DNA of 63,232 nucleotides, counting the filler, from Ionaspis alba (taxonomy: Eukaryota), in the NCBI GenBank assembly GCA_964255285.1. It is 5 parts of 5 records of this genome, joined end to end, with 100 filler letters (N's around TTAATTAATTAA, not from the genome) between each part and the next. Parts side by side here need not be neighbours in the genome. Positions count along the whole stretch, not along the records: positions 1 to 12,593 come from CAXUUL010000500.1; 4 more parts are not named here. The stretch is one strand, 5' to 3'. Shown piece by piece: positions 1-58,700 of this stretch. A model generated the notes under the pieces. The model had not been told where the DNA came from. It saw only the letters and a list, made by a program, of their open reading frames with translations, and did no database searches. The position numbers were made by a program, and so were the translations under genes. Every line of letters starts with the position of its first letter. Position 1 is the first letter of the stretch.

Positions 1-519
1 TGTCTTCATCTTTCGGAGCGCTTGATACCCTTTCAGATGGCGTTGATATGAATGTATCAACGCTTGATCTTAATGCTATGGTGAAGCAACCTGTCTCTCC
101 GGCGCTTGAGAAGGAGAGCTTTATGGCTAAGCATCTCAACGATGATAGCTCTTGCTCGAAGTCATTGATTTGGACAAAGTCATTCACCGGGAAAGCCCCT
201 GAAGAGTTGAATCATGCTTGTTTATTGATATTTGAATGTCAAGCATGGCAAATTCCGTCCAACCATAATATAAATGAGTGTTGAATAATTTTACTTAGCC
301 CGATTGGTTCGAGCTGGCGGCATTATCAATACTGCTAAACCCTACTCGCTTCACTCGTTCTGCTACAATTAACCCATTGCTACAATAGCCTCCTCACCGC
401 ATCTGAGCTGAAATTTTGCAAGCGTAAGCTCTACCTCCTTCATCTACTTCCTCCAGTCTCAAAGCTTTTCGCAGCTACTACCTGAGCACCCAGACTCTGA
501 ATCTGCCAGCTGTGTTGCC

Positions 520-1796
520 ATGGACTCTCCGATGGGCTCCGCACTACCCAAGAACTCATCGTACATGCCACACGAGTGGCCAGAGAACGAATTCTTCGAC
601 CAAATAGCGGACCAGCTGATTGCTGCGGCACAGAGAATTCATTCGCGTAACCTTTCCTGGGAAGTGCTAAAGAATAGCTCAGTATCGAAGAAGAATAGCC
701 CGCGTGACCGAGCTATCAGAGATGCTCAGAGCTACGAGATCTCTACAGAGAGCACTATTGTCTCAAGCAACGATGGTGTCCATTTGGCTATATATATCAA
801 GGACGCATTGTCGATATGCTTCGAGGAAGATTCTTCCCGAGATCTACGATCTTATTTTGAGCAAGCTGTCGAGGAGCTTATCAAGATCTACGAACCACCT
901 CGAGCAGCAAGACATGACCCCCGGCATCGCACAAAGAATGCTAATGGGGACGATATTCCTCTTGGACTGGTTGGTCCCCAAGAACTCCAAGAGATTCGGA
1001 GACAAGAATGCTAACATCATATTAGTTCCACTTGGCCTATTGGAAGATGAGTGGCCACGCCCATGGTCCTCCTGAGCTATCGTCCGACCTCAGACCCCGA
1101 AGCCAGAAAAAGCAAGAGGCGATGAATACTTTCATGAAGCACTATGCCCCGGTAGCGCAGGCTGTTGGGATGTGGTTCAAAAAGCTGGATCCTGAAACAT
1201 ACGAACGATATCACAGCTTCTACAACCAAATGGCCGAGAAAGGTAACCTTGGCTCTCTGCACCAGTGTCGTCGTGGGACATACATTGGTCTGGCCCTACT
1301 CATCAACAAGATTGTGAATCCACATACAGACTCGAACGACGTAAGATGGGGCTGGGTCAACTCTCTTTGCTGGGGACAGTTCGAAGGCGCCAATCCGGTC
1401 TACCCTGACCTCCGGAGAATTTTCGTGCAAAAGCCGCTGGATCTATTGATGACTCGTGCTCCTGTGCTTGAGCATTGGAACACAGATCTGATTGCGGGAC
1501 AAAGATATTGTACCGTTTTCTTTTCGAAAGCCAATGTCATGGATCCGAAAGCTGCGCCTCACGTTTGCGAATACTGTCCAAGCGCTTATGCCACAGCGCA
1601 CGATCTACAGCGGCACTGCCAATTGATAGTCCGTGCTGCCAAAGCTGGGAAGGACATCGGTCAGCACGACATCGGAGTCTTTCGAGAAAGATACCAGTGG
1701 GACGCAAGTGGCTATCAGCAGAAATCCGTTCTACCAGCCAAGAAGATCAACAGACGCAGGACGACAGTAAGATTCAAGAAAATAGTCAGACAATAA
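520..1796 (+). CDS. TET/JBP-like 2OG-Fe(II) dioxygenase with C-terminal Zn finger (copy 1), 2 exons, ~406 aa
   Basis: Exons 520-969 and 1026-1796. The intron 970-1025 (GTTGGT..GCTAAC..TAG) splices to give GL|FHLAYWKMSGH. Contains HxD (PHTD), distal His (LEHWN) and Arg (GQRYCTVFF), followed by CEYC-x12-H-x16-H. Confidence 0.8.
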
Positions 1797-1860
1797 GAAG
1801 TATCATATGATCTTTGGTCTCTGTGCCAGGAGATAAGCACAAGGCCGATACCCTGATGAT

Positions 1861-2232
1861 TATCGACCTGTCTATACTTTTCTGGGCCACATCTTCGATC
1901 AGAAACCGACCGATCTTCCCATAACGCAGCCGTCGGTTCTGGAGCGCTAGAACACAGCATTACCACGAGGCGAGCGGTTTTGCACCGTTTTCTTCTCGAA
2001 CGACAAAGTCATGGACTCGAACCCCGGTTCCTTCAGCTGTGCTTACTGTAGTAGCACTAACAAGAACCAAGTCAACCTGACCAGACACCTGCGCAATATC
2101 ATAAAGAACGCAAAACCTTCAGATCTTGATGGTATATATCCTATTGATGGCATAAGGAAGGAATTTGGCTGGAATGAGGATGCTGTGACCGAGAAATATT
2201 TGGGCCGGTGTAAGAAATCATCCAAAGCATGA
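1861..2232 (+). pseudogene. Decayed 3' half of a TET/JBP-like gene (copy 3)
   Basis: Translation RPVYTFLGHIFDQKPTDLPITQPSVLER*NTALPRGERFCTVFFSNDKVMD..CAYC-x12-H aligns to copy 1 NPVYPDLRRIFVQKPLDLLMTRAPVLEHWNTDLIAGQRYCTVFFSKANVMD. TAG stop at 1948-1950; distal His is replaced by Arg. Confidence 0.8.
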
Positions 2233-2248
2233 CAGCTGCCTCACACCA

Positions 2249-2350
2249 GTCTTCGAGCAGTAATCCATGTATTCATATTGAAGCTCTTGTGCTCGAAAGT
2301 TAGAATGCAGATCTGGTTGCGGGACAATGATGTGCTGTCTCTCTCGAAGG
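2249..2350 (+). pseudogene. Short decayed TET/JBP-like fragment (copy 4)
   Basis: 2283-2349 resembles copy 1 at ~1458-1530 at the nucleotide level. It reads ALVLES*NADLVAGQ*CAV versus APVLEHWNTDLIAGQRYCTV, with stops at 2301 and 2328. Confidence 0.7.
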
Positions 2351-2942
2351 CGCTCGCTAAGAGGTAGCTACCACCAGTCTACCAATCTACGTGTCACTGA
2401 CAATACATTACTTAGCTGCTACTGACGAATCCCTGCTCACTATGCTCAAGCCGTGTCAACTGCAAACTATGTGCCTGCGACCACAAAGTGCGACTCTGGT
2501 GGAGACATGTAATTCCATGCTCTCTGGCATGGCAATGGCTCGAATCATGTACCACATCTTCAGAACTATAGAGCTAGATGCTGCTCTCCTCAATAAGGCT
2601 CTGGAACACAACCATAGTAAGGGCGCCCTGCTGGGCCACTGCCATAATCTATTCGCTTAATGTTTACCGTTGGGGTTTCGTTCAAGGACTTCTGTTCGTC
2701 GAGTAATTGAGATAATATTCTAGGAGTTCAAAGGACCGGCCGAATCGCGGTATATATGAGATTTAAACGATTTCGAATCGCGTCGTTTATGGTGATTCTC
2801 TTAACCCTAAGATAGAGAAGACCCGCGTTTATTTGTCGCGTTTTTATTGGAAAAGTCCCTCTCCTTATTTCTCCCCACACAGCGTCTGCATCACCCTCCT
2901 CGTTGTATTCTTTCGTCACGACACAGGCCGTCTCTCATCGTC

Positions 2943-4261
2943 ATGGAGTCGTCATTAACTCCAAGTATGCCACACGAGTTGGCGGAGAATCAGAGTTTTC
3001 TCGAGGAAGCCCGCAAGATAATCGACAGCTTCGACCATATATATATGAACGGGCTGACATGGCGCTCGATTCAGAAGGTGCCGTCAAAGAAGCGTCTTCC
3101 GACTCGAGAAGAAGCTTTGGAAGCATCGGCTTCCTATAGGGTCATTGATAGGAGCTCCTGTATCATGACCGAAGCTGGCGAGGTACTTATCTGGTACATC
3201 AGAGATGGGAAGTCTCTGTGCTTTATGGATGCCAGCCCTGAGGACCTCTGCTCCAGTACAGAGATAGCGTTCCGTGATATGACGGAGAAATATCCGCCAA
3301 GACAGCCTTCACAAAAGGACGTGAGGCACGGGAACGACTATAAACCTATTGCAAAGGAATGGGCAGAGAAGAAGAAGCACTGGGGCGTTGTAGGCATCTT
3401 AAATCGCAGCTTTCCACATTAACTGACTGCTAATACTTGTCTTAGTACCACCTGGCTTGGTGGACTGCGACAGGTCATCCCGACAAACCTCAACTCTCCT
3501 CGGATGTGGTACCTGACAACAGAAAGCACCGCGGAGCAGCAGAGAAGTTTCTGCAGACCGTTGCTCCGGAGTCGCAATCCATCGGCATGTGGCTCAAAGC
3601 AGTTGACGAGAAACAATACGATCGATATCGTGGGTCGTACACTCGATATGCCAGTCAGGGGGAGCTTGGTCCTATTCATCAGAGCAATCGGAGTGCTTTC
3701 CTGGGTATAGCAGCGCTGGTGAATAAGGCTGTAGATCCACACACAGACAAAGGAGACGTCAGGGATGGCTGGGTAGCCACAACATGCGTGGGAAATTTCG
3801 AGGGTGGCAAGTCCGTCTTCATCGGCCCAAACGTTATCATTAACCAACGGCCGGGGGATATTGTCTTCGCCCGATCAGCTCTGATGCCTCATTGGGTGAC
3901 CGACATCACTGATGGAGAGCGATACTGCCTAACATTCTTCACCAAGAAGCATGTCATGGATCCTCCAGTGTACCGGCTCAGTTGTCGGTGGTGTCGACTA
4001 CCATTCGTTGGCATTCGCAGCCTTGACCGACATCTCAAGAAAGTCATGAATCGCCAGAACGAACCGACACTCGGTGATAGATGTCATAACATCGACGAAG
4101 TTCGAAAAGCCCTCGCATGGCCAAAGCTCTTTCTGACCTTCCAAAGAATTGGAACTGAAATTAGAGAACGTATCGAGATACAAAGATACGCAGAAAAGAA
4201 GTTCCAGTTTGGAAAGGAGATTGAGGACTTAGCCAGAGAATGGATGGCAGAAGACTCTTGA
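2943..4261 (+). CDS. TET/JBP-like 2OG-Fe(II) dioxygenase with C-terminal Zn finger (copy 2), 2 exons, ~420 aa
   Basis: Exons 2943-3389 and 3446-4261. The intron 3390-3445 (GTAGGC..GCTAAT..TAG) gives WGV|YHLAWWTATGH. Contains PHTDKGD, MPHWV and GERYCLTFF, followed by CRWC-x12-H-x17-H. The N-terminus is homologous to copy 1 (MPHE.., PPR...D.RH). Confidence 0.8.
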
Positions 4262-4279
4262 GCATGGCATTACTACTGA

Positions 4280-4700
4280 CTATTGTCTCCGAAAACTTTG
4301 TTGTGAAACAGGCCAGGAAATGGATGCAGACCGAAGAGAGAGATCCCAAGAAAGTCGTTGAACCCAGTAAGCTTCCATTCCATTCCTAACATTATTGCCA
4401 AAGTCTAAGTTCATTAGGTGTGGGAATGCTTGTTCTGCTTCCACACAGAGAACTTGTGCACAATCAAGAAACAAGCCGTGCGTGGTGACAGAGTAGTCAC
4501 AGTATTAGACTATCCCTCAGGCACCATTTGAAATAGCCGATAGCTTCAGAGTATTCTGGCGAGGACTGATATCCAGCATCGCCACAAAGTCCTCGGGGTA
4601 TATCTGGTGGTTGCCATGATCAAGAAGCTCAATAAGCAGTACAAAATAGCATCAGATATCAAAAGGAATACTCAAATTTCAGAGAGCATTCTCAACCGTT
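4280..4700 (-). pseudogene. Possible decayed gene of unknown family
   Basis: One frame reads protein-like through several stops (ENAL*NLSIPFDI*CYFVLLIELLDHGNHQIYPEDFVAMLD..FLDCAQVLCVEAEQAFPHL). Stop density is close to random expectation, so support is weak. Confidence 0.3.
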
Positions 4701-5077
4701 CAAGGGCTTTACATAACAGACGAACTCCGACAAGGAGAAATACGAATAGACTCGGTTGAAGCAAAGGTCAAAGATGTTAGAGTTTGTGAGAGAGAAATCA
4801 GTTATATGAAACAGATGCCGCAATTCAAAAATTAGACCGGGGGAACGTTCGAGACTCATAGGAAACAGAACATGATCAATGACGGCAACAGATTCCAGGT
4901 TGGCAATCGGTTTGGCTCCAGAGAGTCATTTGTATACTGATTCTGACGAGATACCGCAACGCCTCGAGTCTAAAACAATGGGAGAAATGAGTCCATCCTA
5001 GCCCTTCAACTACGTGTGAATAAGAAGAGCCGCAGGCGCCATCGCCACCCGAACATGACGCCACGGAGAGGCCGTAA

Positions 5078-5870
5078 GTGGCCGTCTATCACGCAGCCAG
5101 ATCCAATGCCCACCACAACAACGTAATCAAACGGGCGTTTCTGCTCACCAAGCGGAGGGTCCATCTATGTCTTACCTACTCCAGCAACGAATCTTACGGT
5201 CTTCGGGAAGAGTATGGTATATCGCGGCCCCTTCTGACTGCTCTCCGGGATCGATTCGATGCCATAGGCCGGGACGATTCGTCGCCGCCAACAACGTGCA
5301 AGGGCAACAGCTGTTTCGCCTACTGCTTTATCTTTGTCACCGGGGATCAGATGACCGCTTGAAGTCTTCGGAGGACGCCGGGGGACTTTGGGGAGATAGG
5401 TCTTTTGTCACTCAGCTCCACCCCGATGACTTGTCTTACGGCGCGGTACCAGGCTACCAGACATGCCATGAAGCAAGGATATTGCCATAAGCTCGGATCA
5501 CTTGTCCGAGACAGGTTGACATCAAAGAAAGATATATGAATGGTCAGGTAAGGCACAGCAATTGGAGGTCTCCGGTACATAATATGGGTAAGCAGGAACG
5601 CTGGACTGAACTTATCTTCACTAACTGGACAAAGCAGTACCAGTTGACCACCATCAGTCTCTCGTCAACCAAGGTTTGCAGGCAGGCGTTTTATTGCTGT
5701 AGTGGCAGCGTGGGACGGCATTAAGGAAGGCTGGCTTGGCAAAATACGGCTAGCCTATCTACGCCTACTTTAGTGATCATGGGCCATATAGCAATGCTAC
5801 ATTTTCCGGTGTTCTTTGAATCTTAGGACTAGGGGAAAGCGGTTGCTGAAGTGAGATATTGCCTGACAAG
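5078..5870 (+). pseudogene. Fragmented relic of an uncharacterised fungal protein family (SYGxREEY motif)
   Basis: KRAFLLTKRRVHLCL..SYGLREEYGISRPLL is followed by short ORFs in shifting frames and an LGLG..Y patch near 5825-5865. The family resemblance is from memory and unverified. Confidence 0.4.
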
Positions 5871-6092
5871 AAGGGATAGCGGCTCAGCTAGTCGGCATAC
5901 AGCTTTTCGGTCGTACGAGCTTCCTCCGCAGACCCCGCCGCGAATCCCTTCAGTCGTACTTATCCAGATCGATACACTGCTCGCACACCCTATTTCATCT
6001 TAGTACCATTCATGCGGTGTTGCAAAGCTGTGCCATATATGCCTCTCGGATGTGAAACCTTGCTTCACATGACTCGAAAGACCCGTTGCATG

Positions 6093-6302
6093 ACCGCATC
6101 CAGCCCAAGACCTTAGAGAGTTCCCATTTGCATCGCCTGAATCGAGANNNNNNNNNNNNNNNNNNNNNNNNNNNNNNNNNNNNNNNNNNNNNNNNNNNNN
6201 NNNNNNNNNNNNNNNNNNNNNNNNNNNNNNNNNNNNNNNNNNNNNNNACCGCATCCAGCCCAAGACCTTAGAGAGTTCCCATTTGCATCGCCTGAATCGA
6301 GA
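6093..6302. other. 100-N scaffold gap flanked by an identical 55-bp overlap
   Basis: 6093-6147 is identical to 6248-6302; Ns occupy 6148-6247. Confidence 0.9.
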
Positions 6303-6335
6303 AGGAGTGTGTAAATATAACTCTTATCAGTTACC

Positions 6336-6513
6336 CGGTTGCCAAAATAAATGATACACCAAACGAGAGATTTAACTGGTTCGCCCTCTTAAATCCCCTG
6401 GAAGAAAAAAATTTTAGATAAATAAATCGGGGAATCTATTTGTCGTAAACGTTCCCCCGGCTGCGTAATTATGGGAACACCATTTTTTGATATACCATTT
6501 ATTTTGGCACCCG
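6336..6513. repeat. Imperfect 28-bp inverted repeat enclosing an AT-rich core (MITE-like or transposon terminus)
   Basis: 6336-6363 CGGTTGCCAAAATAAATGATACACCAAA versus the reverse complement of 6486-6513, CGGGTGCCAAAATAAATGGTATATCAAA: 24/28 identical. No clear TSD. Confidence 0.7.
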
Positions 6514-7020
6514 CGTGCCAGTATATCATTATCGAGATACTAAAAGATAGAATAGTCTAACTGAAATAGTTATAATCTGTTGTTTCGTAGTTTCTGCAAG
6601 GGACAAAATCCTGGTTGGGCCTTGTTTCTTACCTTGCGAAAAGCCGAAGGTTTAGCTCCGGCTGATTGGCGGAACGAGAATCAAAGTAAACACAACACCA
6701 CACTCCAGTATCTGCTTGCCATGCGCCACTAGGACCCCACCTTCTCAATTCCAAGGCCTTTGAAGCATTGGAGTTACCTATATCGCGTTCAGGCTGCTCT
6801 AGATTGCTCTTGCAAGTCTGTTTGCAGCCAAAGTCGCGCTGGTTGTTGTATTCCACTTCAGCTTTAGACCACCAACCGACCTCTGGCCGTCGCCGATCTG
6901 TGCGGTCGCACCAAGGCCGACTCTGCGGCCTCCTTCCATGCCATGTTCAGGCTCACCGAAAGAAAGCGAGCAAATACAGAGAAAGTATCTTGACCACATA
7001 CTGCGCACCATAAGGACGTG

Positions 7021-10000
7021 ATGGCCTACCATCTCCCACCGCGAAAACCGCAAGTAGCAGCCTATTCACCACCGCGTAATAGCCCCTTGCGACATTCATC
7101 GACAGCCTCGACTGATTCATCTGCCTACTCGAACACCTCGGATCCTTTCCTACCAAGTCGAACCAGCACAATTTCCTCAGCGGCTTCAAGCGGTTATCAG
7201 CAAGCCGCAGCAGGACACAAACGAGGAATCAGTGAGGCCGGAATGGGCTCTCCGGTCCTCGGAGCATATAACAGGAGCAATGACTCGAGTCCTGCGGGTA
7301 CATATCGGAATACTAGACAGTCCTTAAGACCGTTGCCACAACCACCAAACGACTCCGTACCCTCGACCTATAAGACTGGCCACCCGTCTTACTCGCGAGA
7401 GTCAAGCTTGGAGCCTCAACCCGTATCTCAAAACGACTACCTAGGCTACGCTAGTTCCACACCTCACCTTCATCATGGACATTCTCAATCGATGGGTCTC
7501 AGTCGGGCTGAGTCCGTAACTCCTTCCTACTCTACATCGTTACGGCAGCATGCACACCATGCGCAGTCGACTCCTCATACTTCCGCGATGGCTCCGTCTG
7601 ACCTCAAAGATCTCAAGAACTCCTCTACAAGTCACCTGCGGACCCTATCGAAGTTCGCCCAAAGCGGGACGGGTGAGGACTTCTCCATTACCGCACCCGT
7701 GCCATCTGTTGTTGGACTACAAGGTCGAAGACAATTGAAGCGGACGGACTCGACGAGTGCAAGCAGGGGTACCGTTGCTTTGAGCAATGGCTCCGGCTAT
7801 GCTTGGGCAGGTCGGAATTGGATGGATCAACAACGGCAATTTCTACAAGCTTATGAGTATTTGTGCCATATTGGAGAAGCAAAAGAATGGATAGAGGATA
7901 TCATACATAAGCCTATACCCCCAATTGTACAGCTGGAAGAGGCTTTGAGAGATGGAGTCACCCTTGCGGAGATTGTTCAGGCACTCATGCCTCAACGGAA
8001 TATCAGGATCTTTCACCATCCTCGACTCCAGTTCCGGCACTCGGACAACATTGCCGGTTTCTTCCGCTTTCTAAGCGAAGTCGAGCTGCCGGAACTATTC
8101 AGATTCGAGTTGATCGACCTTTACGAGAAAAAGAACATACCAAAAGTCATTTATTGTATACATGCTCTGTCTTGGCTATTGTATCGGAATGGTATGGTGG
8201 GGTTTCGTATTGGCAACCTGGTTGGACAATTGCAATTTGAAGACCATGAATTAGAAGCGACGCAGAAGGGTCTTGACAAGGCTGGAGTTAACATGCCAAG
8301 TTTCGCCGGTATGGGAGCTTCTTTTGGTGCGGAGCCAGAACCCGAACCCGAACCAGAGCCAATGGAATCGGAAGAAGATAGGATTGATAGGGAACTGAGC
8401 GAGAACGAGGACATGATCAACGATCTACAATCGCAGGCAAGGGGTGCAATAATCCGTTTGCGACTTGGCCTTCAGATGCAGGCGCTGTGGGACTCGGAGG
8501 AGATGCTGATCGACCTTCAAGCACGAATCCGGGGTGATTGGGCCAGGCAAATATTGGATTATCGCCTCTCCATGAGGAAGTTCGCTATCAATCTTCAAAG
8601 TGCCGCTCGAGGACATATAGTTCGAGCCCAGGAGCGTGGCAATGAGGCAAGGTGGAAAGGACATGAGGCTCAAGTCATGATCTTACAAAGTCTTATCCGC
8701 GCTAGAAGAGTGAGAGAGGAGACGCAATATGTGAGGGGTATTGCAAGACGAGAAGAGTCTGGTGTGCGGAGCTTTCAAGCGGCGATTCGTGGAGCTCTTG
8801 AGCGCAAGCGTTTCGATACTCAGTACGAACAAGCCCGAGATGCAGAGACAGGAGTGGAAACCTTACAGGCAGCTGCTCGTGGAATGCTTCAGCGACAAAA
8901 ACGCCTACAACAAGCTGCACTGCTTCGTCTATCTCAGCCGTCTGTGCTTTCTCTCCAGGCCGCTGTCCGTGGGATGAGTGCAAGGTCTGTAAAGTCACGT
9001 CAGCTTGCGAGTCTCCAGAGCAATAATGGAATATGGCGAGCAATGCAAGCAATATCGCGAGGAAAGCTAGTTAGAGGCCAGTTCCATTCGACTAGAAAGC
9101 AACTGCAATCTCACAGAAGTCAACTCTCTCTCCTTCAGGCCCATCTAAGAGGCAATGAGACGAGGCAAAATCTCAGCGCTCTCAAGTCCTCACTACTCAG
9201 CACATCAGATTCTATCTCGGCCCTTGAGGCTGCCTCTCGAGCTCACATCCTGCGCTCAAGGCAAGCTGCCGATCTCAAATTATTGTGCAGCAACACACCT
9301 CGCATCGTCTCTCTACAAGCCAAGGCCCGGGGGTGCTTGCTCAGACGGCATCAATCAGATCTGTTTGATGAGCTGATTCCTGAGCATTCTCAGATAACGC
9401 AACTCCAAGCCTTCTCGAGAGCGATGATGATCCGGATGGATGTTGGCCATCTTCTTAATCAGCTTGAAGACGAAGAATTAAGTATAGAGGCGCTGCAAGC
9501 TGCCATTCGCGGTAGGCTTGTACGAGCAGTGTTTGCCGAGAAGCAGCGTTTCTTCAAGCAGAATATGGAGAAAGTGGTCAAAGTGCAGAGCTTTGTGCGG
9601 GCCAAGCTGCAAGGTCAGGCTTACAAGAGTCTTACCAATGGCAAAAACCCACCCGTTGGGACAGTGAAAGGCTTTGTACATCTCCTGAATGATAGCGATT
9701 TCGACTTTGACGAAGAGATCGAGTTTGAGCGTCTCAGGAAGACTGTGGTACAGCACGTCCGGCAGAATGAAATGGCTGACCAGTACATCACTCAATTGGA
9801 CATCAAAATTGCTCTACTTGTCAAGAACAAAATCACCTTGGATGAAGTCGTCAAGCACCAGAAGCACTTTGGTGGATCAGTTGGTAGTCTTCTCACAAAT
9901 AGCGAGATCTCGTCGAAGGATCCTTTTGATCTCAAAGCGCTCAACAAGAACTCTAGACGGAAGTTAGAGCATTACCAAGAGCTCTTCTTCATGCTCCAGA

Positions 10001-13149: not shown

Positions 13150-16100
13150 TCAGTAGAGCACGTTGGGTTTCCAAAACCCAGCCAATTCGTCATGATCATC
13201 AGTGCCGTTTGTGTGTAGACCCGTCACTTCTCGTTCCTCTGGCTGGTACAACTTGGCAGATCTTGTCAATTCAGGTCTTCCGATATCAAAGTTACTGATG
13301 GAAGCGCTTCTTCTCGGCCTGCTTCTATGATGAAATGACGCCGGGGAGTGGCGAGACCCAGCCAGCGTGCTATCAGGCCTGGTTAAGTAACGCAAGTCTT
13401 CAGCAGGTATAAGGTCGTCCTCAAAATCGTACGGGGACTCAACGATTCCTTCAGCCTCTGGCAAATCATGCCACTGATGCTCATGTTCTAGTGCACTTGG
13501 ATGTCCTAGGAGTCCATTCTCCTGGAACATATTGTAGTCATCGTCGTGGTACGTTTGATCGGAAACAGCCTTGCCGTCACATTGTCGGACAATGCTTGTC
13601 TGGTGTGGTCTATGAACAGTAGACTCAAGAGACTGCGGTGTCCCGTATGGGCGAGATGCCGATGGGCGAGCAGCCCAGATGAACGGCGCGCTCTGTAATG
13701 ATAACCGATTCGGTGCGTACAGCTTTCGAGGTGATGACTCTTCTGCTTGCATCTGCCGCTCGTAGATTGATGGTCCTTCTCGCCACCTGGTACTGACGGG
13801 CTGCACGTATGGCTGGCTGGCAGGACGTGAAACACACACCGGAGTCGCATGTGGCCCTCTGGATCTCCGGTCATTGTTGATGGCGGGCGCTCGCGGTAAA
13901 GGCAATCTAGGAGCCTCGCCAGTATCCCAAAGTACGATGGTAGATTGGCTGTTGGGAGCTCCGGGTAAGGATATTCCGTGGTCGTTATGCGATTCTTGTA
14001 CAGCTGATGAAGGTCGAGAGGCTGGCACGTTTGGGCTTGGCATCAGAGGAGGAGTTGGGAGAGCTTGTGGAGGTTCAGTAGTATTATGTGCAATCTGCTC
14101 TTGTCTCTGTGCGTCTTGGTTGAGAGAACCAGGATGCTCTGTTTCGTCTCTCTTCTCCTTCTGTTCAGGTGCAGGGTTTCGAAGACTGTCGACAACATCT
14201 GTAGGAATCATGACTTTATCTTTCCACTTATCGATCAGCTTATCGAGTGCTTGAGTGAAGAGACCCTGATCGTCTTGATTATCGAGTCCACTAGATTCGG
14301 TACCCCTGTTGACGTCTGGATGAGGAGGGCTCTCCGGCTTCGACATGCTATTCAGCTGGCCATCCATTTTTGTTGTCTCTGCCGGAATTTGAAGCTTTGG
14401 CTGAGGTAGTTCAGGAGACTTCTCCCTTTCTGCAGGCCTTGATTTATTTACCATGTCTTCGGTGGAGCTCTGATGAGATCGAGGAGGACGTCTTCTTGGG
14501 GTGATGTTTAGTCGCGGTCTGGGAGGGTGGTTTTCTTTACCCTCTGAGCTTAAAATGGTACCCTGGGTCGTAGAAGTGTGTCCCTGTTTAGGTCTATTGT
14601 TGCTTCCATCTTGGTTCGCCAGCTGATTTTGGTGTGGTATCGACGGCCTGATATCCTTGGGTATAGATGGACTAGAGATCAGGATTCGCCTGTTAGCTTC
14701 TCTACCATGTCTCAAGCACGGTTGTACCATATCGGGACTCTTAGACCAAGATAGTAGGCTTGTTGACGGTATCAACACCCGTGCGGGCTGTCGCTTGCCT
14801 AGAGATACTGCAGAAGCAAGGATCTCGTCGAGCTCCTTCGATGCTGGACGTGGTCCACGCTTCCCGAAACCCAGGAAGGGTACTTCAGGTAAATCAATAG
14901 GCTGAGCTGATGAATCCACAACGCTCGAAGAGTAGTGAGGCTTCTCCCGTGTAGCTCTCGCTCTTCTATGCCTCTCATCGCCGATCCCACGTGCGGAGTC
15001 ATGGTTTTTAATTCTTTGTGAGTTTACGGTCGATCCGAAGAAGCGTGAGATCCTCTCGTCATCTTCTGCAGCCTTCCTTCTTTTGCTTAGCTGCTTGTTC
15101 TGGGCCTTCGGACTTGGCTCTGCAGCTCCCGATTGACGAGCGTTGAGGAAGTTCATCTCGGAAAACGTAAGATCTGGGACTAGCCAGAATACATGTTAGA
15201 CTCTGAATAGCTCAAGCATATACTCCTTCGATGCCGACTTACGTCCTCTTCTCTTAACGGGTTCGGAAGCCCGGCCTAATGCAAACAGACCTAGCTTTGA
15301 GCCTGGCCGCAACTATCTCGGTCAGCATATCCAGTCGTGAATCAAGTATTGCGATGAATGTAAGATAGCTCTAACGTACGGTAAGTCTTTCCGACGCGAC
15401 ATTGTCTGCGGTAAAGTTGTGCAATAGGGCTGCGCCGTGTCTCTCACTGTGCTTATGCCTCTTCCTCGTCCGAGCTTTCTTCTCTTTGCTCGGCCTCCCA
15501 GTCTTGTCCTTCTTGATATCGTACTTGTCCCATTTTGTCTTGTGGCGCGCCTTTCTCTCATAGGTCTTTGCAGGTCGCAAGAGGGATGAGACTGATGATG
15601 TAGTGAGGGACTGGGCGTCGGAAAACAGCGCGTGGTCATCACTCTCATGCCTATGCCTCCTTTCAGAATGCCTGTAGTGTTTCTTCTCAGCGTGATGTCT
15701 CAGCTCAGCGGGTTCGTCGAATATCGCGGGCTCGAGGTAGGAAGTCTCTGAGGAGCTGCGCTTCCGCTTTCGTCTTTGATACATGTCAAGTACGGTATTA
15801 TCCTTGTCCACATTCTTCGCTTCCATGCGACGGAAGGGCGTATGTAATCCAATTCGCTCCGCAAGATTGCGAGGATCGCTCCCGCACTCCGCTGGTTGTG
15901 CACGTCTTCTTCCTATTCCTTAGCATCGGGCAGTCAGTCTCTCTGACCCACTCAAGACTAGAAACATGAACACAGTGGGCTTGATGGCATACCACAAGCA
16001 CCTTGTACATCTCCTTCTTGTCGCGGTACACAATCTGCTTCTTCTTCGAGTCGGCTGCGGCCGCCTTTGGTTACGGTGTACTCTTTATTACAACGGCTAG

Positions 16101-22254: not shown

Positions 22255-24178
22255 ATGGCTCTTCTGTCGTTCGTAAAGGACCGTTCAATGGCTGAGCCTC
22301 CGCCGAGGCGGGAGGAGGGCCTTGTCGCGATTGAGGCGCCCATGATGCCATGTAATAGCTGTCGCACTCAAAGAATCAAGTGCGATGGCAACGCGAAGGC
22401 TTGCACGAGACCTGGCGTCGGAGCAAATGCGGTCTTAGAACAGCTGTTTACCAAGCAAGGCGTGTCCGTCGACGGCACTGACACAACTCTCTCAGTTTCT
22501 CCTAGTTTCCACCTGAATTCTACTCCTGGTATGTTCCTATTTGAAACGAAGCGGACTTGGCTCACATGCTAGAAATATCAACCGCCCCGCCTTCCTACCT
22601 TGATTATGCACCTCGCGGTGGGCCAAAAACGGGTTCATATGAAGCATGCCTGAACAAGCTCGGCTTCCTTCCAGAAAACCATAACAGTTTGCCACTCAAT
22701 AAGCGCGGCAAGCTCATTCAAGCCTTGAGAGAACACACGCTTGAACCTAAATGCACTTATCTTATGAAGGAAGACAATGAAGCGGCATTCAACTCCTTGG
22801 TTGATGGGTTTCTCCACAAATACGGTTCTGAGTTTTGGGGACCAGGCAATCGAAATCATCTGGTAGAGAAGGACCCTTCCCACGGCTTCCTCTATCCCCG
22901 AGATGCGCAGCGTAAGGGCTCGAGGTAAGTTTAGAGACTAGGTACTTTATGTCAGTGTTTCTTTCTGACTAGCATGGAAGCTTCTTGCGGGCCATTGAAG
23001 AGCTTTTCAATTACAAGGCAACCACTGCTACTAACAACGACGTAAGCAGTCACCTTATGTTGGGAGTCTCTAAGCTAATACAACAGATGCATCAGCGCAA
23101 AAAAAGGACTGAGCACCAGGTGAAGCGACACATCGACTTCACGGCATTAGATCCCTCAACAATCAATAGCCCAGAGCCAACAGGACGGTTGGAGGTTGAG
23201 TCGCAGAGCGGACCAAGTCGTCACAGAGAACGAGCGAAAAAGACACAGAGCGATGACTCTGACTGTGATCGGCCACTACCGCCGAAAGCTAGGTATTTCC
23301 ACGAAACACGGTCCACATTCTCAGACGGAATTGCAAGTACGTTGAAATCAAAGCACCCGACTCACACGGAACGCCATGGAGAAGAGGGTCGGGATGATGA
23401 GGACGACGTGGATCAGCGTCTGTCGTCGCAGCGCAGAAAAGTCAGATCCCTGGACGTGCATGCACGCATTGGCAGCAGTCGGAAACCCAATAATCCGGAA
23501 ATCCCACAAACGCCTAAAGCCGCGAGAAAAGCGGCTCAAGGCACTGGCCAAACTGGTCAGATATCTAGTATATCTATAAAATCATCACAAGCGGTCCCGC
23601 CATCAACGCCTAGGCGGTCCGCACGAGAGCAGATGGCGAGAAGCCGTCCAGCCGACTCTTCGAGCTTCTTTGACGTCCCTCTGTTACCGTCTGATCTTGA
23701 AAGTAGTGAGGAGAGCGATGAGGAGCCTATTGAAGTCCAGGCACCTTCTCTGCCGGCGCAATCCCAGTTGAGAAAGCCTAGTCGTCATTTTACACATTCA
23801 GGTGCCACCAAAAGCTCGAAGCAAGTATCATACAAGCCTACTTTGCTTTCGTACGATGTCACATCTGGTACCAAGCTCAAGGTCATCGCCAGCAGTCAGC
23901 AGAACATGGCCCCTGTCACCGTACGACTCACGTCCTACAAACCGGAGGACAATCTCTTCGATTTTCTCGCAGCAGAATGCGAATTGGGTCCGAAGGTGAA
24001 GGTCACGGCAGTCTCAGCAACGTACTCTTGGGAGCAAACTCCGCATCGACTTCGAAAACACAGGCTCGATGAGGACTGGGAAGTATTCTGTGACACTTTA
24101 CGACAGGCTTGGGAGCGTCTTCCTGATCCCACGAAGGGTGGACTTGAGGTGACTATGCTTCTTCATGTTGAAGAATAA
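22255..24178 (+). CDS. Hypothetical protein with a degenerate Zn2Cys6-like N-terminal motif, ~4 exons
   Basis: Three ORFs are joined by introns 22529-22572, ~22925-22980 and an in-frame intron ~23042-23087. Motif CNSCRTQRIKCDGNAKAC. Start may be 22288. Confidence 0.65.
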
Positions 24179-34614: not shown

Positions 34615-36125
34615 ATGGTCTCAACCTTATATACTCCTCCCAATCCTGATAATGGCACCTTCATGGAATCATTGTCTAACTGGTCTCCTCATTCCTCGTC
34701 ACAACATATCATGGATCCGAACCACGAAATGTAAGCCAAATCCCGACTTCTCGACGTGAGCCTATCTTTTGGATCAAGCTCTATGACAACTAACATGGTC
34801 TCAGTATGGATCCCAATGTCCAGATCAATCCTGCCAACAATATCACTGTCGATCCCGGTCTAGACTCTCCCTTCAACTTCAATAGGTCCAATGAACTTGA
34901 TCACAGCTTTTATGCTTCAAGCTCTAGCATCAGCTCGAGTTTCTCCTCCGCAGGTCCTCTGACCCCTTCTCCATCAACTCCATCCTCTTCCCGTCGCCCA
35001 TCCACCGTCTCTACCGCCTGGGGTTCTCAATTTTACTCCGAGTCGTCGTCAATTGCCGCCACTGGTCCTCCGACCCCAAATCGTGAACATGTATTGTTCT
35101 CTTTGGACCCCTTTGGTCTCAACAATCAGCTCTCCAATGTGGTTGGGAAAGACAATCTTTCCTTCTTGGCGGGTACTCCAGCCTACGGCACGGAAGACCC
35201 GTTCATGACATTACCATCCCACGGCTTACCGATTCGACATGACGAAATAGATCTTTCGTTGATGGACTTCGACCGAGTGAAAATGGACCTGGTTGTCCAG
35301 ATGCCTGATCCGTTCGTGGATGCTCCTCGGATGTCCAGATCCTCTTCGGGTATTGCGGTCGATCAATGTCTCTCACGAGCTATGTTTGGCACCTCTGAAC
35401 TGGCATCCGACTACCAAACTCCTCTTTGGCCTCCTTCAGCCATCGATCCATCTCCTACCACCATAGTTCCATCCCAAACGATCACATTACCTACGACTCC
35501 TCAAAAGCAAGTCACAAGTACAATGAAGACGCCTGTGAAAGATGAATTCGCGTCGTCTTCGCTGATCTCCGAAGATGAAGGCAGCTTACCACCCGGCTTC
35601 AGTCCCCTAGATACAAGTTCTCCTTCTGTCAGGCTCACGTGTCCGAAAGTTGAGAGTCCACCACCCAAGCCAAAGAGCCGGAGACGATACCAGCAACAAG
35701 CCGAACGAATCACGACCAGGCGGGGCGTCACCTATACCGTATCGTCCACCTTCAAGAAGACCCCCCAAGATGATCCCTGCATGGAGTGGATTCCGGACGA
35801 CAATCATCCAGAAGGTGGCCAACACTGTACGGCTGTCTTTAGGCGTTCCGAGCACCTCAGCCGCCATCGTCGAACGCACAGACCCGACGAGAAGAAGTGG
35901 CCATGCCCCTTCCCTTTATGTGACAGGGTGCTCACCCGCAAGGACAATCTCCCACCGCATTTCATGACGCATCGCCAGGGATCCGGCAAAGGACGAGGCT
36001 CGGGTCGGAACATCCGGGTATCAGACGAGGAAGCAGATCGACTGGGTCTTTTTGGACCCAAGCCATCGAAGCAGCGCAATAAGAAGAATGTGGCTGCTAA
36101 AAGAAGTGTGGATAGGAGGACATGA
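34615..36125 (+). CDS. Two-finger C2H2 transcription factor, BrlA-like
   Basis: FRRSEHLSRHRRTH and CPFPLCDRVLTRKDNLPPHFMTH..GRN. A short 5' exon (ATG 34615 or 34663) is joined through intron 34731-34804. Confidence 0.8.
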
Positions 36126-52103: not shown

Positions 52104-54469
52104 TCATTCAGTTTTCTCTGGCGATATCGTCGTCGTCGCTGTCGTTGTCGTGGTAGTACTCTCCATCTTCTCACCCATCAACTTCCCCTCCGCAACCTCC
52201 AACCTGCCCTTCACATCCCTCAACTCTGCCTGCAGCGCCTTGATATACTCGATAGCCGACTCAACCGTACTCGCCTTGCTGTTGCTCTGCTGCGCCGCCG
52301 TACCCGTCATCATCACGTTCATTGTCCCTCCTCCTCCTCCTCCACGAGCACCTGCTGACTCTTCTCTATCTCCAACACTGCTAGCTCCAGTAGAATTGCT
52401 GTTCGCTGCAACGTTACCAGCACCAGCTCCTGCGCCCCCGGCGGCACCAGTCCCATTCATAGTGGGGGTTGTCGGTGGCAGAAGTGCTGCAATCTCCTGC
52501 AAAGCATTATTAATCCTATTTCTCCTTCCTTGTTCCGCAATCTTGTGCGAAGTCCGCTTGGAGGTCAGGTTCGTGGAGAGCGCTTCCGGGTAGGAGACAC
52601 CGGGTAAGTGGGTGCCTTCGAGGATGTTCTGGTAGTTGGATTTGGAAGCGAGGAGGAGAGCGGAGGTTTGGGATGTGAGTGGTGCTAGTGAAGGATTAGT
52701 CTTGGGTTGAGCTTGGTCGAAGGGCGATGACGGTAGGAGGGTAGGAGGGGAGAGGAAATGGGTAGGTAATGGGGAAGAGGAAAGGGGACCCTACTGCCTT
52801 CCGGTAAAAGAGGTTTGATACTTGGCGAAATCCTCGGCCTCAAAGCCGGACTCGCTTGCGACGACGCGGTGCTATTCCGTTTCTTACTGCCCCTCCCTGT
52901 CGCCGTTGTCGTCTTAGCCTCCCCACGCTTCCCCGCTATAATGCCACTCTTAGGCGAAGCCAGGGCGCTTAGACCCGGACTTGGAAACACAGATCCTGTC
53001 GCTGTGGTCGGTGCACTACTAGTTGGTGGTCCTCTCCGGGCTGAGAGCGTGGGCGTTGCTTCCGAGTCGTTGGCGACTGCGGTGTTGATATTGGGGAGGC
53101 TGGGTTTCCGGGAGGTGGGAGCAGGGATGGTGGACATAATTTGTTCCATTTGGGCTTCGGCGGCGGAGGTTGTTTCGGCGAGGTGGGCGTCTGAAGGGGC
53201 GGAGGGTTTTTGGATGCGCATTAGAGAGGCGGGTGTTGCAGGGGCGTTGGTGTTTGAGGCAGCGGATTGAGGGCCTTTGTGTTGAGCGGAGAGGTGCGGG
53301 GATTTTCCGACTGAGCCAGGGCGGGGTGTGGCAGGTGGTGGCATGAGGATTTCGCTCAGAGGTTCTGGGGATATGGAGCCACCTTCGGAACTGTCCTGGC
53401 TGTAGGGAAGGGAGAGCTTCTCCTTGGACGATCGATGACTTCCATTGGACTTGGAGTTTTGGGCGTCTTGGATAATTTCGTGGATTTCTTTTGGTGGGAT
53501 GACGGTACTGGAAGGTTGCTTCTTCCTGGATTGGGGTTTCATGGCTGGAGATTGGCGAACGGCTCGTGCGGGATTCTTGGTAGATGTGGATGTTGTTTTT
53601 CTTCTCGACTTCTTTCCCGGTGCTGGTCCACTTGCGGAGGTCACGCTCGTATTGCTATCCATGTTCATGTCGATAGGAGACGTCGTATCTGAGGTGTCGG
53701 ACCCACGAAGAGCTCCGTACACCGATCGTTGGGTAGCATGGTGCTGGGCTTCTAGTGCCGGAGAAGTAAGGGGGCTGAAGTATTCTCCCGGAATGGTGTA
53801 CTCGGGTATGCGGAACTGCGCATCGACAGGAGTGACAGCAGGCGATACCAATGGCGTGAACATCATCTACTCATCGATCAGCGTCATTCTCTCTTCTAGC
53901 CATGATCTTGCCATCCTCACATTGTCCTGCTGCTTTTTCGAATAATGCTCATACATCGCCCTCGTCCTCCCATCCATCTGCGCAAAATGTTGCGCATGTC
54001 CTCCATGCATCTCGATGCTGTTCGGCGTCGGTGGCACAATACCTTGTTGCCTCCGATATTGCGTGTGCGCCATTCTGTGCTGTTGCTGTTGTTGATTGTA
54101 TTGTTGCTGGTGGAAAAGCTGCGCCTGCATCTCCAATTCCATGAGAGACTCCGTCGACGGTCCATGCACGAGCTCTGGCATCGTAGTCTGCATATCCATC
54201 AATCTTGGATCCAGCGCAGAGTTCAGATCCCTCTCTTTGAGTTGCATCATCCCTCCAGCTTCGTGCTCCATGTTCGTATCCACTACCCCTCCCCCACCAG
54301 CACCAAGATGTTCTTGTTCTGCCCCACCAGATGTGTCCACATTCTGACTCTCTGCTGTATCGAAGTTGGGAAAGTTGAGCTGCAAGTCGCCAAATTCAAG
54401 GAAGTTGGCAAAGTCTTCCTCTGGACCCGAGACCATTGGCGACCATGTTGAGGTCGGGTCGTGGTTCAT
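52104..54469 (-). CDS. Pho4/NUC-1/PalcA-type bHLH phosphate regulator, 3 exons
   Basis: FTPLVSPAVTP, YFSPLTSPALEA, LASKSNYQNILEG, KRTSHKIAEQGRRNRIN and SKASTVESAIEYI. Introns 53867-53920 and 52685-52794. Confidence 0.9.
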
Positions 54470-55784: not shown

Positions 55785-58700
55785 TTAACCAGGCATATTC
55801 ATCATCTGTCCGTTCAAAGTCATCATCTGCCCATTCATAGTCGTCACCTTTCCATTCATAGTCATCACCCGCCCACTCATACTCTGCATCTGACGACTCA
55901 TCTGGGCATCCATAGTCATCGAAGGCATGACCGACCCAGTCATGGTCGACATCTGGCGCATCATCGAACTCATCGCCGAATCCGTCATCATGGACGACAT
56001 GCCGGACATACTCATCGTAGACATCTGCTGCATCATCGACCGCATACTCGCATCCATCGTCATCAGTCCCGAAGTAGAAGTAGTGCTCTTACCCAAAGCT
56101 ATACCCTCGACAGTAATACGCGTACGTGTTGTAGTCGCCACGGTCGTCGACTCACGGATCTCATTTCCAACGGGGCAAGGAGGCAAACACCTCTCGCACA
56201 CCACAGCTGGAAAATTTCCTTCATCAAGAACCATATAGAATCCTCTAGTCTCGTCGTAGTTGGAGCAGACAGGAGGGTCGATTGGGTAAAATTCTTGGAT
56301 TAGATAGATGAATCCAAACTGCTGACACAAAAACGGACAAACGCTGCTGTCTTCCAGAGTCAAGCCACAAGACTTCCGGGTCAAGTTCAGCGGCGGTGGA
56401 ACATCGAGGGCGTACCGGGAATACGAGATCCTAGCATTCGTATCATAAACAGCTGGCGAGGGAGTGGCGCTAGGAACGGGAGGAACACAATCATAGGGCC
56501 GTCCATCTTGACACGGCGGCAAGCACTGATAACATCTCGAGTTCCCATCTGTGAAGAATGAAAAAGGCTCGCATTGCTGAAGTGGCTCAGGAAAGTTGTT
56601 GCAGAGGTAGGGACACTCCGCCACCTCTTGTGCGGTGGATCCGCAGGCCGTGCGATACCGTAGACGATTGGTGGCGTTAAAAACAGCAGGGACCGGACTG
56701 AACGATGGGATCGCGGTGCAGGTTGCCTTTTTGGTCGGAGTTGGCTGGGGACAGGCTGTGCAGGATACAGCGCTGAAGCGTGCGATCATCGGTACAAAGG
56801 TCTCGCCGGTTATGTCGGACGACTGGCAGATTGAAGTGTCGTGGCCTTCATGATCCGTGAGGAGGCAGATGTATTTGCAAGCGTTGAATTTGTTGGTTAT
56901 CATGGGACAGTTGAAGCAGAAGAGATCCCCAGCACAGTCTCGGATGACCGGCTGCGGGTTGATAACGGAGTCGGATTGGGAGACTAATGTTACAGACAAG
57001 CTACTTCCCGTACCTGGTGTTGCTGATGTCGACGGATAAGTCTTTGTAGAGCTGTTTGACCACATCGATGAGGCATCTGTAGGAGAAACAGCCAATGAAG
57101 AAGGTCCTACACTGGTAATTGCAATTGACATTGAAGTCACCATCGTCGACGTAACGGATGAGTTGCCACATGGCTCGTAACACTTCAGACATCGTTGCCG
57201 GAAAGCGAAAGGATCGAAATTCACAGAACATAATAGGTAATCAGAAGGTAGCTTGTCCGGTAACGGAATCGGAAATCCAGCTGCGCACAACGCAGAGCAA
57301 TTTTTATTATCCACCGGATCAGTAGGACATCTGTTCCTGAAAACATTATCGACACCTGGAGGTCCTGTAATGGCTGGCGGAGTCGGAGTCGTTGTGTCAC
57401 GAGGTAGACAAGTCGTCGTTGGCGTTGGAGGAAACGGTCCACCACAAGCAGGTGCACATACCGTGCAGTTTTCTCCGTTGGAAAGGTCGCCACAGACACG
57501 GTAGTTTCCTAAGCCTATGATGTTTCCTGCAATTGAAGGGATGTCACAGAGATATGCGCAACTGAGGTCCGGTGTCGTGGGACACTCCTGACGTAAGGTC
57601 GAGTTTACAGCAGGGCTTTGGATGACTACCACAGGCGGTATAGGCGTTTGGTGACTTTGTGGTACTGTTGTACATGGCAGGGCCGATGATTCTGACGAGG
57701 TGTTGATCTGTTGATTATTAGCTGAATCTCTTGCGTTCAATCGATGGGCGTGAAGTGATCAAATACAGCTGTCGGCGAAGTGGAAATTCCAGTTCCTGCA
57801 GTACCTGTAATTACTGTGTTTTCAGTGTTGGTGATGCCCGAATTTGCTGCAGTAGAGTTGGGGAAATATGTGAGGATCTTGGTAGTCAAGACGATAGTAG
57901 TTTGGGATTCATCGCCTCCCGCACTCGACGATATCGGTCCACCTTTTCCAGAAGCCGCACTCGTTGGAGACGGTGTCTTACTAGATGGTCCATTACCGCT
58001 GCCGGTGCCATACAAGGTATTCGAGCTGCTCGAGCACGGTGGAAGACATTGCTCACAGATTGGCTTGATGGCAGGAAATGGTGCATTGTCGAAGGTGTAG
58101 TTACTGGCCGTCAAGTTGAGATTCGAGCAAGTGTAATCCGGAAACCCGGTAAAGGGCCAGAAACAGCTGTAAGGACAACTTTGGATCCCTTCCAAGGTTC
58201 CGGAACATCGGCCGGGTGGGACGTTCTGATTAGTAGCGATGGTTGGGGTGATGCAGGCACCGGAGAATGCAGATAGATCAACCTAGCCACTTATTAGGGT
58301 GACTGAGCGGAAGTCGGGGAGTTTCGGCCTTGACTGACCGAGGTGGTGGAGCCGACACAGGAGAGCGAGGTGCTGGTAGTGACCGGTGAGGTTACCGTGG
58401 CTGTGAAAGTCGGATTCTGGGCATGTTAAGCTCACAACATCAAACGTGAGCTTGAGCACAGGAAACTTACTGCAGGAATGAATGGGTCCGGTATGAAGGT
58501 CTCACTGAAGGCACATCCGCCGCAAAGCAGCGTGCCAACCTTGGTAGCAGTAGATTGATAGACCGTACTCGTAGGAGGAGACTGGTACTGAGAGTACCTT
58601 GTATACGGCACGGTACAGCATTCATAACTCCCAACCGTTGTCACAATAGGGACAGTGACTGTCGTTTCATACTTCGGACTCTGCCCATTTCTATTAGCAT

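Follow-up and report, generated by a model that had tools for sequence, protein, structure and literature searches.

Two adjacent paralogous genes for predicted TET/JBP-type dioxygenases with a C-terminal zinc-finger-like module in an Ionaspis alba assembly

To our knowledge, CcTet of the basidiomycete Coprinopsis cinerea is the only fungal enzyme for which biochemical work has demonstrated active DNA demethylation. CcTet-type genes are tied to Kyakuja and Zisupton transposons (PMC12730594). For Ascomycota, the 2025 screen by Kojima reports, in its excerpted text, transposon-borne TET genes in Pezizales only, where they reside in Helitron and IS3EU elements and are all of the PE type with an HxE motif (PMC12730594). 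The distribution and the physiological role of fungal demethylation pathways are still to be established according to a review from 2026 (PMC13207564). These papers, like the others named below by PMC number and the Cladonia genome paper, are cited from excerpts. Here we describe two neighbouring genes, A and B, within positions 520-4261 of a 63-kb stretch of DNA from the Ionaspis alba assembly GCA_964255285.1, which was analysed as a whole and is called the window in the following. Judged from sequence comparisons and structure models, A and B are probably old, side-by-side paralogous host genes that encode TET/JBP dioxygenases with a predicted activity in 5-methylpyrimidine oxidation.

The two genes are composed as follows:

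520..969, plus strand: gene A exon 1; 150 codons, open from the ATG at 520; N-terminal part of a TET-like protein
970..1025, plus strand: gene A intron; 56 nucleotides (nt), GT..AG, sequence read directly
1026..1796, plus strand: gene A exon 2; 256 codons plus stop; predicted double-stranded beta-helix that carries HTD, H and R and is followed by a C2H2-like zinc finger
2943..3389, plus strand: gene B exon 1; 149 codons, open from the ATG at 2943; paralogous to gene A exon 1
3390..3445, plus strand: gene B intron; 56 nt, GT..AG, placed like the gene A intron
3446..4261, plus strand: gene B exon 2; 271 codons plus stop; predicted catalytic domain, C2H2-like finger and long C-terminal helix

Once spliced, the frames yield open products of 406 amino acids (aa) for gene A and 420 aa for gene B. 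Both introns contain branch sites of the CTAAC/CTAAT type and are inserted between G(L/V) and (F/Y)HLA(Y/W)W; in gene A, removal of the intron restores the frame and with it the conserved junction GL-FHLAYW. Exon 2 of either gene thus begins with an (F/Y)HLA(Y/W)W..GH block. It is followed by the catalytic motifs, for which, as for all family residues below, the numbering of gene B exon 2 is used: PHTD with H99 and D101, H149 in LMPHW (VLEHW in A), and R159 in GERYC (GQRYC in A). Two intact paralogs on the same strand, of just these lengths and with HxD..H..R motifs behind an HLA block, had been claimed in the original prediction, and the gene models bear this out. With 40% identity over 202 aa between the exon-2 products (E 7e-61) and 31% over 121 aa between the exon-1 products (E 3e-19), the paralogy of A and B is far beyond chance. 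A long C-terminal helix (residues 228-270 in the AlphaFold model) is peculiar to gene B.

At two sites of gene B the assembly departs from the reads of runs X1 and X2. At 3228 both runs read A where the window has G, which changes an Asp of exon 1 to Asn; at 3757 both read T instead of C, a synonymous difference in the codon of Asp104.

The assignment to the TET/JBP family was based on several sequence searches. In a Pfam scan of the exon-2 products, Tet_JBP (PF12851) was the sole family found over the catalytic region of A (E 4.3e-6, 26.5 bits, profile positions 19-164 of 164) and of B (E 7.1e-7, 29.0 bits, profile positions 32-164 of 164). PF12851 is also what the precomputed annotation assigns to P0001, the product of an open reading frame (ORF) of the window. 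A HMMER search with a two-sequence profile among 1.84 billion representatives returned 532 clusters at E<=1e-3, 176 at E<=1e-10 and 29 at E<=1e-30. When 53 of the 150 listed relatives, chiefly the longer ones, were scanned with Pfam, 45 matched Tet_JBP at E<=1e-3, 23 of the 53 exceeded the Pfam cut-off and seven were without any Pfam match. One of the 53, P0072, is a false positive composed of fibronectin repeats. Word-index protein searches gave one match with B exon 2, two with A exon 2 and two with an alignment of 119 rows. The profile built from these 119 sequences found CcTet (E 3.2e-16) and NgTet1 of Naegleria gruberi (E 4.2e-12) in the PDB, and the next entry followed at E 0.42.

The near-invariant columns of the family are H99, D101, D104, G116, H149 and R159. 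Among the 119 aligned relatives, H99 is conserved in 111, D101 in 116, H149 in 110 and R159 in 108. In A and B the Fe(II) triad HxD...H and the Arg for 2-oxoglutarate are intact and align with H326/D328 of CcTet and with H229/D231, H279 and R289 of NgTet1. In the relatives, the counterpart of exon 1 can be aligned with CcTet from its residue 124 onward; hence exon 1 encodes part of the same fold. Although both genes stay below the formal Pfam score, their homology to Tet_JBP is secure.

The same placement was obtained with predicted structures. An AlphaFold2 model of B exon 2, calculated with the 119-row alignment, had a mean predicted local distance difference test score (pLDDT) of 90.1 and a predicted template modelling score of 0.79. 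In a Foldseek search of the PDB with this model, CcTet ranked best (E 9e-10, TM score 0.54), followed by NgTet1 (5e-7), CMD1 (2e-5), TET2 (1.7e-4) and AlkB (7e-4). VIA-align, an independent structure comparison over 48,161 representative chains, gave Z scores of 14.8 for CcTet (root mean square deviation 2.2, 167 residues aligned), 14.8 for NgTet1 (2.1, 155 residues) and 12.4 for TET2, as compared to 9.4 for FTO, 9.0 for AlkB and at most 9.4 for prolyl hydroxylases. The full-length fold was judged on the relative P0007 (384 aa, matching the query profile at E 2.8e-51), the model of which had a pLDDT of 91.9. The 22 Foldseek rows listed for it through rank 26 are TET-family entries only (E 5e-16 to 4e-8), and the first match outside the family is Neurospora T7H (E 1.6e-5). 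The modelled double-stranded beta-helix is thus nearer to TET enzymes than to other 2-oxoglutarate oxygenases. The original prediction had named AlkB and small-molecule oxygenases as the structural matches that would speak against it; the best matches are instead of the TET type, and its claim of TET/JBP membership is upheld by sequence and fold alike, both of which put CcTet and NgTet1 closest.

CcTet (PDB 7vpn, 7w5p, 8jkk), an AG-type enzyme, is the best match by sequence and by fold. It has the AWW..GH block, the HxD motif, the distal His and GERYC..F in common with A and B, and like them carries a basic residue at the position of NgTet1 His297 (Arg in CcTet, Lys in A and B). However, the identity is only about 23-25%, Gly331 and Asp337 of CcTet are replaced by Asp and Val, and in the alignment CcTet is without the C-terminal zinc finger. 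In contrast to the transposon link of CcTet-type genes, no transposon was seen in the window. NgTet1 (PDB 4lt5, 5cg8) shares with A and B the HxDxxD motif (HKDNLD), which is also present in CMD1 and JBP1, and the stacking Phe295, but it is 17-19% identical, has no zinc finger and has His297 where A and B have Lys. The PE-type proteins of Pezizales are, like A and B, ascomycete proteins with a TET/JBP fold. Compared by their description only, they differ in the HxE motif and the Helitron/IS3EU setting from A and B, which have HxD and stand without a transposon (PMC12730594). As A and B have HxD and are nearer to CcTet, they would not be of the PE type.

With TET1-3 and JBP1/2, A and B share the catalytic fold and the ligands of iron and 2-oxoglutarate, whereas neither a Cys-rich insert nor a CXXC or J-binding domain appeared in the Pfam scan. 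The putative zinc module of A and B is a single C2H2-like unit after the catalytic domain. It is reminiscent of the CXXC domain of TET1 and TET3, which is also a zinc module on a catalytic enzyme. No earlier description of a finger-bearing TET clade was found in open-access text, and the words TET and dioxygenase are absent from the Tangerine Starship paper.

Clues to the substrate come from the residues around the active site. Both genes have HxDxxD (HTDSND, HTDKGD), and the Asp at HxD+3, D104, is present in 108 of the 119 relatives. It aligns with Asp234 of NgTet1 and Gly331 of CcTet. TET2 Asn1387, NgTet1 Asp234 and CMD1 Asp350 form a hydrogen bond to N4 of 5-methylcytosine (5mC) and clash with the methyl group of N6-methyladenine (6mA), and the acceptance of 6mA by CcTet is due to Gly331 (PMC11040006). 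In A and B this Gly is replaced by Asp, which makes 6mA improbable as a substrate, contrary to the hint in the original prediction. The stacking aromatic residue is retained as Phe165 in B, aligned with NgTet1 Phe295. The position of NgTet1 His297 and TET2 His1904, which bind N3 of 5mC by a hydrogen bond (PMC11040006, PMC11804724), is Lys167 in B and Lys in A too; 46 of the 119 rows have Lys there, 42 have His and seven have Arg, the residue of CcTet. Taken together, the aligned residues suggest 5mC as the likely first and thymine as the likely second substrate.

By sequence and fold, the double-stranded beta-helix binds iron with His-x-Asp and the distal His, and 2-oxoglutarate with the conserved Arg. 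A possible course of the reaction is the following. A 5-methylpyrimidine would be flipped from duplex DNA and its methyl group hydroxylated, most likely converting 5mC to 5-hydroxymethylcytosine and onward to 5-formylcytosine and 5-carboxylcytosine, or alternatively thymine to 5-hydroxymethyluracil (5hmU). The Asp three residues past HxD would form a hydrogen bond to N4 of the base and exclude N6-methyladenine. The C2H2-like finger at the C-terminus may aid DNA binding or targeting, or may brace the fold.

This finger follows directly past the last strand as C-x2-C-x12-H in A, in B, in psi-1 (a decayed copy described below) and in the nearest relatives. Other members of the clade, e. g. L001, a related locus from a metagenome contig, have the canonical form C-x4-C-x12-H-x3-5-H. 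In A and B the second His (H214) lies 17-18 residues past the first, as opposed to 3-5 in C2H2 spacing. Among the 119 rows, C180 is found in 43, C183 in 42, H196 in 47 and the distal H214 in 28. The model shows a beta-beta-alpha unit at this place with a pLDDT of about 91.

A quick maximum-likelihood tree (LG+G4, with support from the Shimodaira-Hasegawa-like approximate likelihood ratio test only, rooted on the long-branched P0116) was calculated from 50 rows: 47 of the 150 listed relatives, the exon-2 products of A and B, and L001. The relatives were drawn from P0002-P0047 (at least 170 aa) plus P0052, P0054, P0065, P0079 and P0116. A and B fall into a clade of 26 rows with support 100, and the finger pattern is present in most of the tails examined. 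Gene A is sister to P0002 (support 99, 63% identity), whereas gene B branches alone at the base of the finger clade. As the sister of A is a protein from another source and B is basal, the duplication seems to be old, without a recent burst. The only relative that came with an organism name is P0079, a hypothetical protein from a metagenome-assembled genome of Villophora microphyllina (Lecanoromycetes), which is 25% identical and belongs to the finger clade. Short introns, long intron-poor ORFs and this Lecanoromycete relative fit a filamentous ascomycete-like host. A comparison of the N-terminal piece of Hsp90 with the PDB did not narrow this down, as the human and the yeast protein had similar scores.

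Between A and B lie remnants of further copies:

about 1837..2229, plus strand: psi-1; decayed C-terminal third of gene A, comprising the last strands of the catalytic domain and the zinc finger
2283..2354, plus strand: psi-2; brief decayed remnant of gene A that corresponds to 1458-1506 and slightly more

In psi-1, residues 274-390 of gene A match 1867-2217 with 39% identity (tblastn, E 1.2e-19). A stop lies near 1948 and the fourth zinc ligand is changed from His to Tyr. The open frame 1951-2229 is matched by a hidden Markov model (HMM) of the family with E 6.4e-18, and a weak colinear piece lies in 1837-1947 (E 0.27). At the nucleotide level, 1980-2021 matches 1508-1549 with 83% identity over 42 nt (blastn, E 1e-7). 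For psi-2, 2283-2331 matches 1458-1506 with 80% identity over 49 nt (blastn, E 1e-7), whereas the match at the protein level is by itself weak (tblastn, 26 aa with 50% identity, E 1.7). The two fragments differ from gene A by 17 mismatches in 91 aligned nt, too few to judge a bias of the repeat-induced point mutation type. The two decayed copies that the original prediction had placed here were thus recovered, psi-1 by tblastn, the family HMM and blastn and psi-2 by blastn, and from their sequence they are defunct, incomplete copies of the gene A 3' end. A third candidate scrap at 2580-2630 was rejected, its tblastn match (E 7.2) being not significant and the family HMM having no match there. 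Neither tblastn nor the family HMM found a further copy elsewhere in the window. Of the birth and death of genes that had been proposed, one part stands, in that the gene A 3' end was duplicated locally and the duplicates decayed, but A and B themselves are old paralogs.

For 1628-1994, which reaches from the last part of gene A into psi-1, run X1 contains a second contig of 367 nt with 34 differences and a depth of 27, compared to 128 for the main contig. It could come from a diverged extra copy elsewhere or from a minor strain.

The surroundings of the pair look ordinary. From 6994 on lie housekeeping genes, namely those for an IQGAP-type RasGAP, protein disulfide isomerase, Vta1, eIF2B-epsilon, Spt20 and Hsp90. 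The G+C content is flat, with 0.46-0.55 across the window and 0.48-0.49 over the TET genes. No transposase domain was detected in ten flanking ORFs and two intergenic ones (1860-2048, 2361-2657), which had no Pfam match at E<=0.1, nor in 20 large ORFs elsewhere in the window, where the Pfam families were only housekeeping ones. A search over 1-7000 gave no inverted repeats bracketing the gene pair. Contigs of run X1 span the whole stretch with 0-2 differences; their k-mer depth, which is not a copy number, is 113-132 for the TET genes and 123-132 for the IQGAP gene. In run X2, at least eight near-identical low-depth pieces were found, including parts of A, of the intergenic region, of B and of downstream DNA; the locus is thus contained in two data sets of one study. 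Run X3, from a different organism of that study, yielded the IQGAP gene alone, in diverged parts, and no match in 1-7600, which is no evidence of absence.

Among metagenome contigs, three of 95 pattern matches were confirmed as related loci with a four-row alignment. L001 has a single TET-like gene amid genes for Rpb5, an AMP-binding enzyme and 3-hydroxyacyl-CoA dehydrogenase, L003 a single one beside a PDR ABC transporter, and the 2.6-kb contig L002 carries one copy that lacks introns. Neither a transposase nor a tandem array was seen in these three loci. In L001, a weak match of the family HMM (E 0.003-0.02), which concerns the HLAYW..GH region, lies at 3854-3946, upstream of the TET-like gene by about 500 nt; this may be another decayed scrap.

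Downstream of gene B, at 6333-6516, lies an element of about 184 nt that resembles a miniature inverted-repeat transposable element (MITE), with terminal inverted repeats of 31 nt that are 84% complementary. Its k-mer depth in X1 is 400-490 per bin and 2433 at one site, with flanks of about 120. The raised depth and many loose ends at 6333 and 6517 indicate a multi-copy repeat.

Several points weigh against the interpretation of A and B as resident TET-type enzymes. Both exon-2 products stay under the Tet_JBP gathering score of 34.9, and all Pfam zinc-finger matches are sub-threshold (E 0.11-0.64 for A and B, 4e-4 for P0007). Since the Asp at HxD+3 is also found in the thymine-specific JBP1 (PMC11804724), D104 does not separate 5mC from thymine, and with Lys in place of the N3-reading His base recognition would not be fully TET-like. 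Moreover, the window opens 519 nt before gene A, so that a large mobile element could end inside it. The chemical points are shared by an alternative in which A and B are thymine hydroxylases like JBP or the phage T-dioxygenases, producing 5hmU in DNA, or RNA m5C enzymes. NgTet1, which has the same Asp as JBP1, itself measurably oxidises thymine, and substitutions at the N3-reading His push TET2 towards thymine (PMC11804724); in addition, the presence of 5mC in this fungus is a premise only. Yet the closest characterised relatives, CcTet, NgTet1, TET2 and CMD1, all act on 5mC, the exon-2 products lack a J-binding domain of the JBP type, and CcTet prefers 5mC despite the Arg at the His297 position (PMC11040006). 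We therefore regard this alternative as unlikely. That A and B are functionless relics, on the way to the state of the fragments between them, seems highly improbable. Decayed copies do adjoin both genes, and run X1 reads Asn for Asp at 3228 in gene B. However, the spliced frames are open across 406 and 420 codons, all six near-invariant residues of the family are retained in both, intron position and catalytic motifs have been conserved despite divergence to 40% identity, and the second difference from X1 and X2, at 3757, leaves Asp104 unchanged.

Alternatively, a transposon of the KDZ, Plavaka, Helitron or Starship type may carry the pair, which would serve anti-silencing by removal of 5mC from the element and undergo turnover by birth and death. 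TET/JBP genes are carried by many lineages of DNA transposons in Basidiomycota and Pezizales (PMC12730594), and decayed gene fragments lie between the copies. The MITE-like multi-copy element 2 kb downstream, the diverged second version of 1628-1994 at lower depth in X1 (34 differences in 367 nt) and the short stretch of window left of gene A would agree with this as well. But the scanned ORFs contain no transposase, no inverted repeat brackets the pair, the G+C content is uniform, and the contigs of the TET genes and of the IQGAP gene are equal in k-mer depth. In L001 and L003 the relative is a lone gene in ordinary surroundings, the paralogs A and B are old, with 40% identity, and HxE, the hallmark of the only ascomycete transposon-borne type in the excerpts, PE, is missing and replaced by HxD (PMC12730594). 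Mobile cargo is thus an improbable explanation. With downstream housekeeping genes and flat G+C, the accessory island of the original prediction found no support, and neither did its mobile-element origin, given that the window has no transposase or bracketing repeats and that relatives are single genes.

If A and B are resident host genes for TET/JBP dioxygenases, as we prefer to read them, what they add is new but modest: a TET pair of the HxD type in a non-transposon setting in a filamentous ascomycete-like fungus, from a clade distinguished by its C-terminal C2H2-like finger and by Lys where TET2 and NgTet1 read N3 with His. As intact genes of the HxD type in ordinary chromosomal surroundings, A and B differ from the HxE type, restricted to Pezizales and to transposons, of the excerpted Ascomycota screen (PMC12730594). 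If active, the proteins would supply an eraser for ascomycete epigenetics and two compact enzymes of about 400 aa with base-contact residues unlike those of the solved ones; if inactive or thymine-specific, they would represent a routine family expansion. A bolder proposal, which we think rather doubtful, is that A and B belong to finger-bearing resident host TETs of Pezizomycotina, with the Villophora protein as a named member from a lichen-forming Lecanoromycete, that act as the missing active 5mC eraser of filamentous ascomycetes and are directed to certain sequences by the finger. If this is true, reversible methylation between free-living and symbiotic life of lichen fungi could depend on an eraser of this kind. 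The Cladonia genome paper reports, in its excerpted part, that a DNA methyltransferase is up threefold in co-culture, and this induction makes the reading as a lichen demethylase worth stating.

Apart from the gene pair, two features of the window were observed. Pfam gave no match at E<=0.001 for five long open frames (393-681 codons): 13153-15195 (minus strand), 22973-24175 (plus), 34794-36122 (plus), 52688-53866 (minus) and 55788-57758 (minus). A run of N at 6149-6247 lies between perfect direct repeats of 55 nt (6093-6147 and 6248-6302). As a contig of run X1 joins 6092 straight to 6248, the gap and one copy of the repeat look like a scaffolding artefact.

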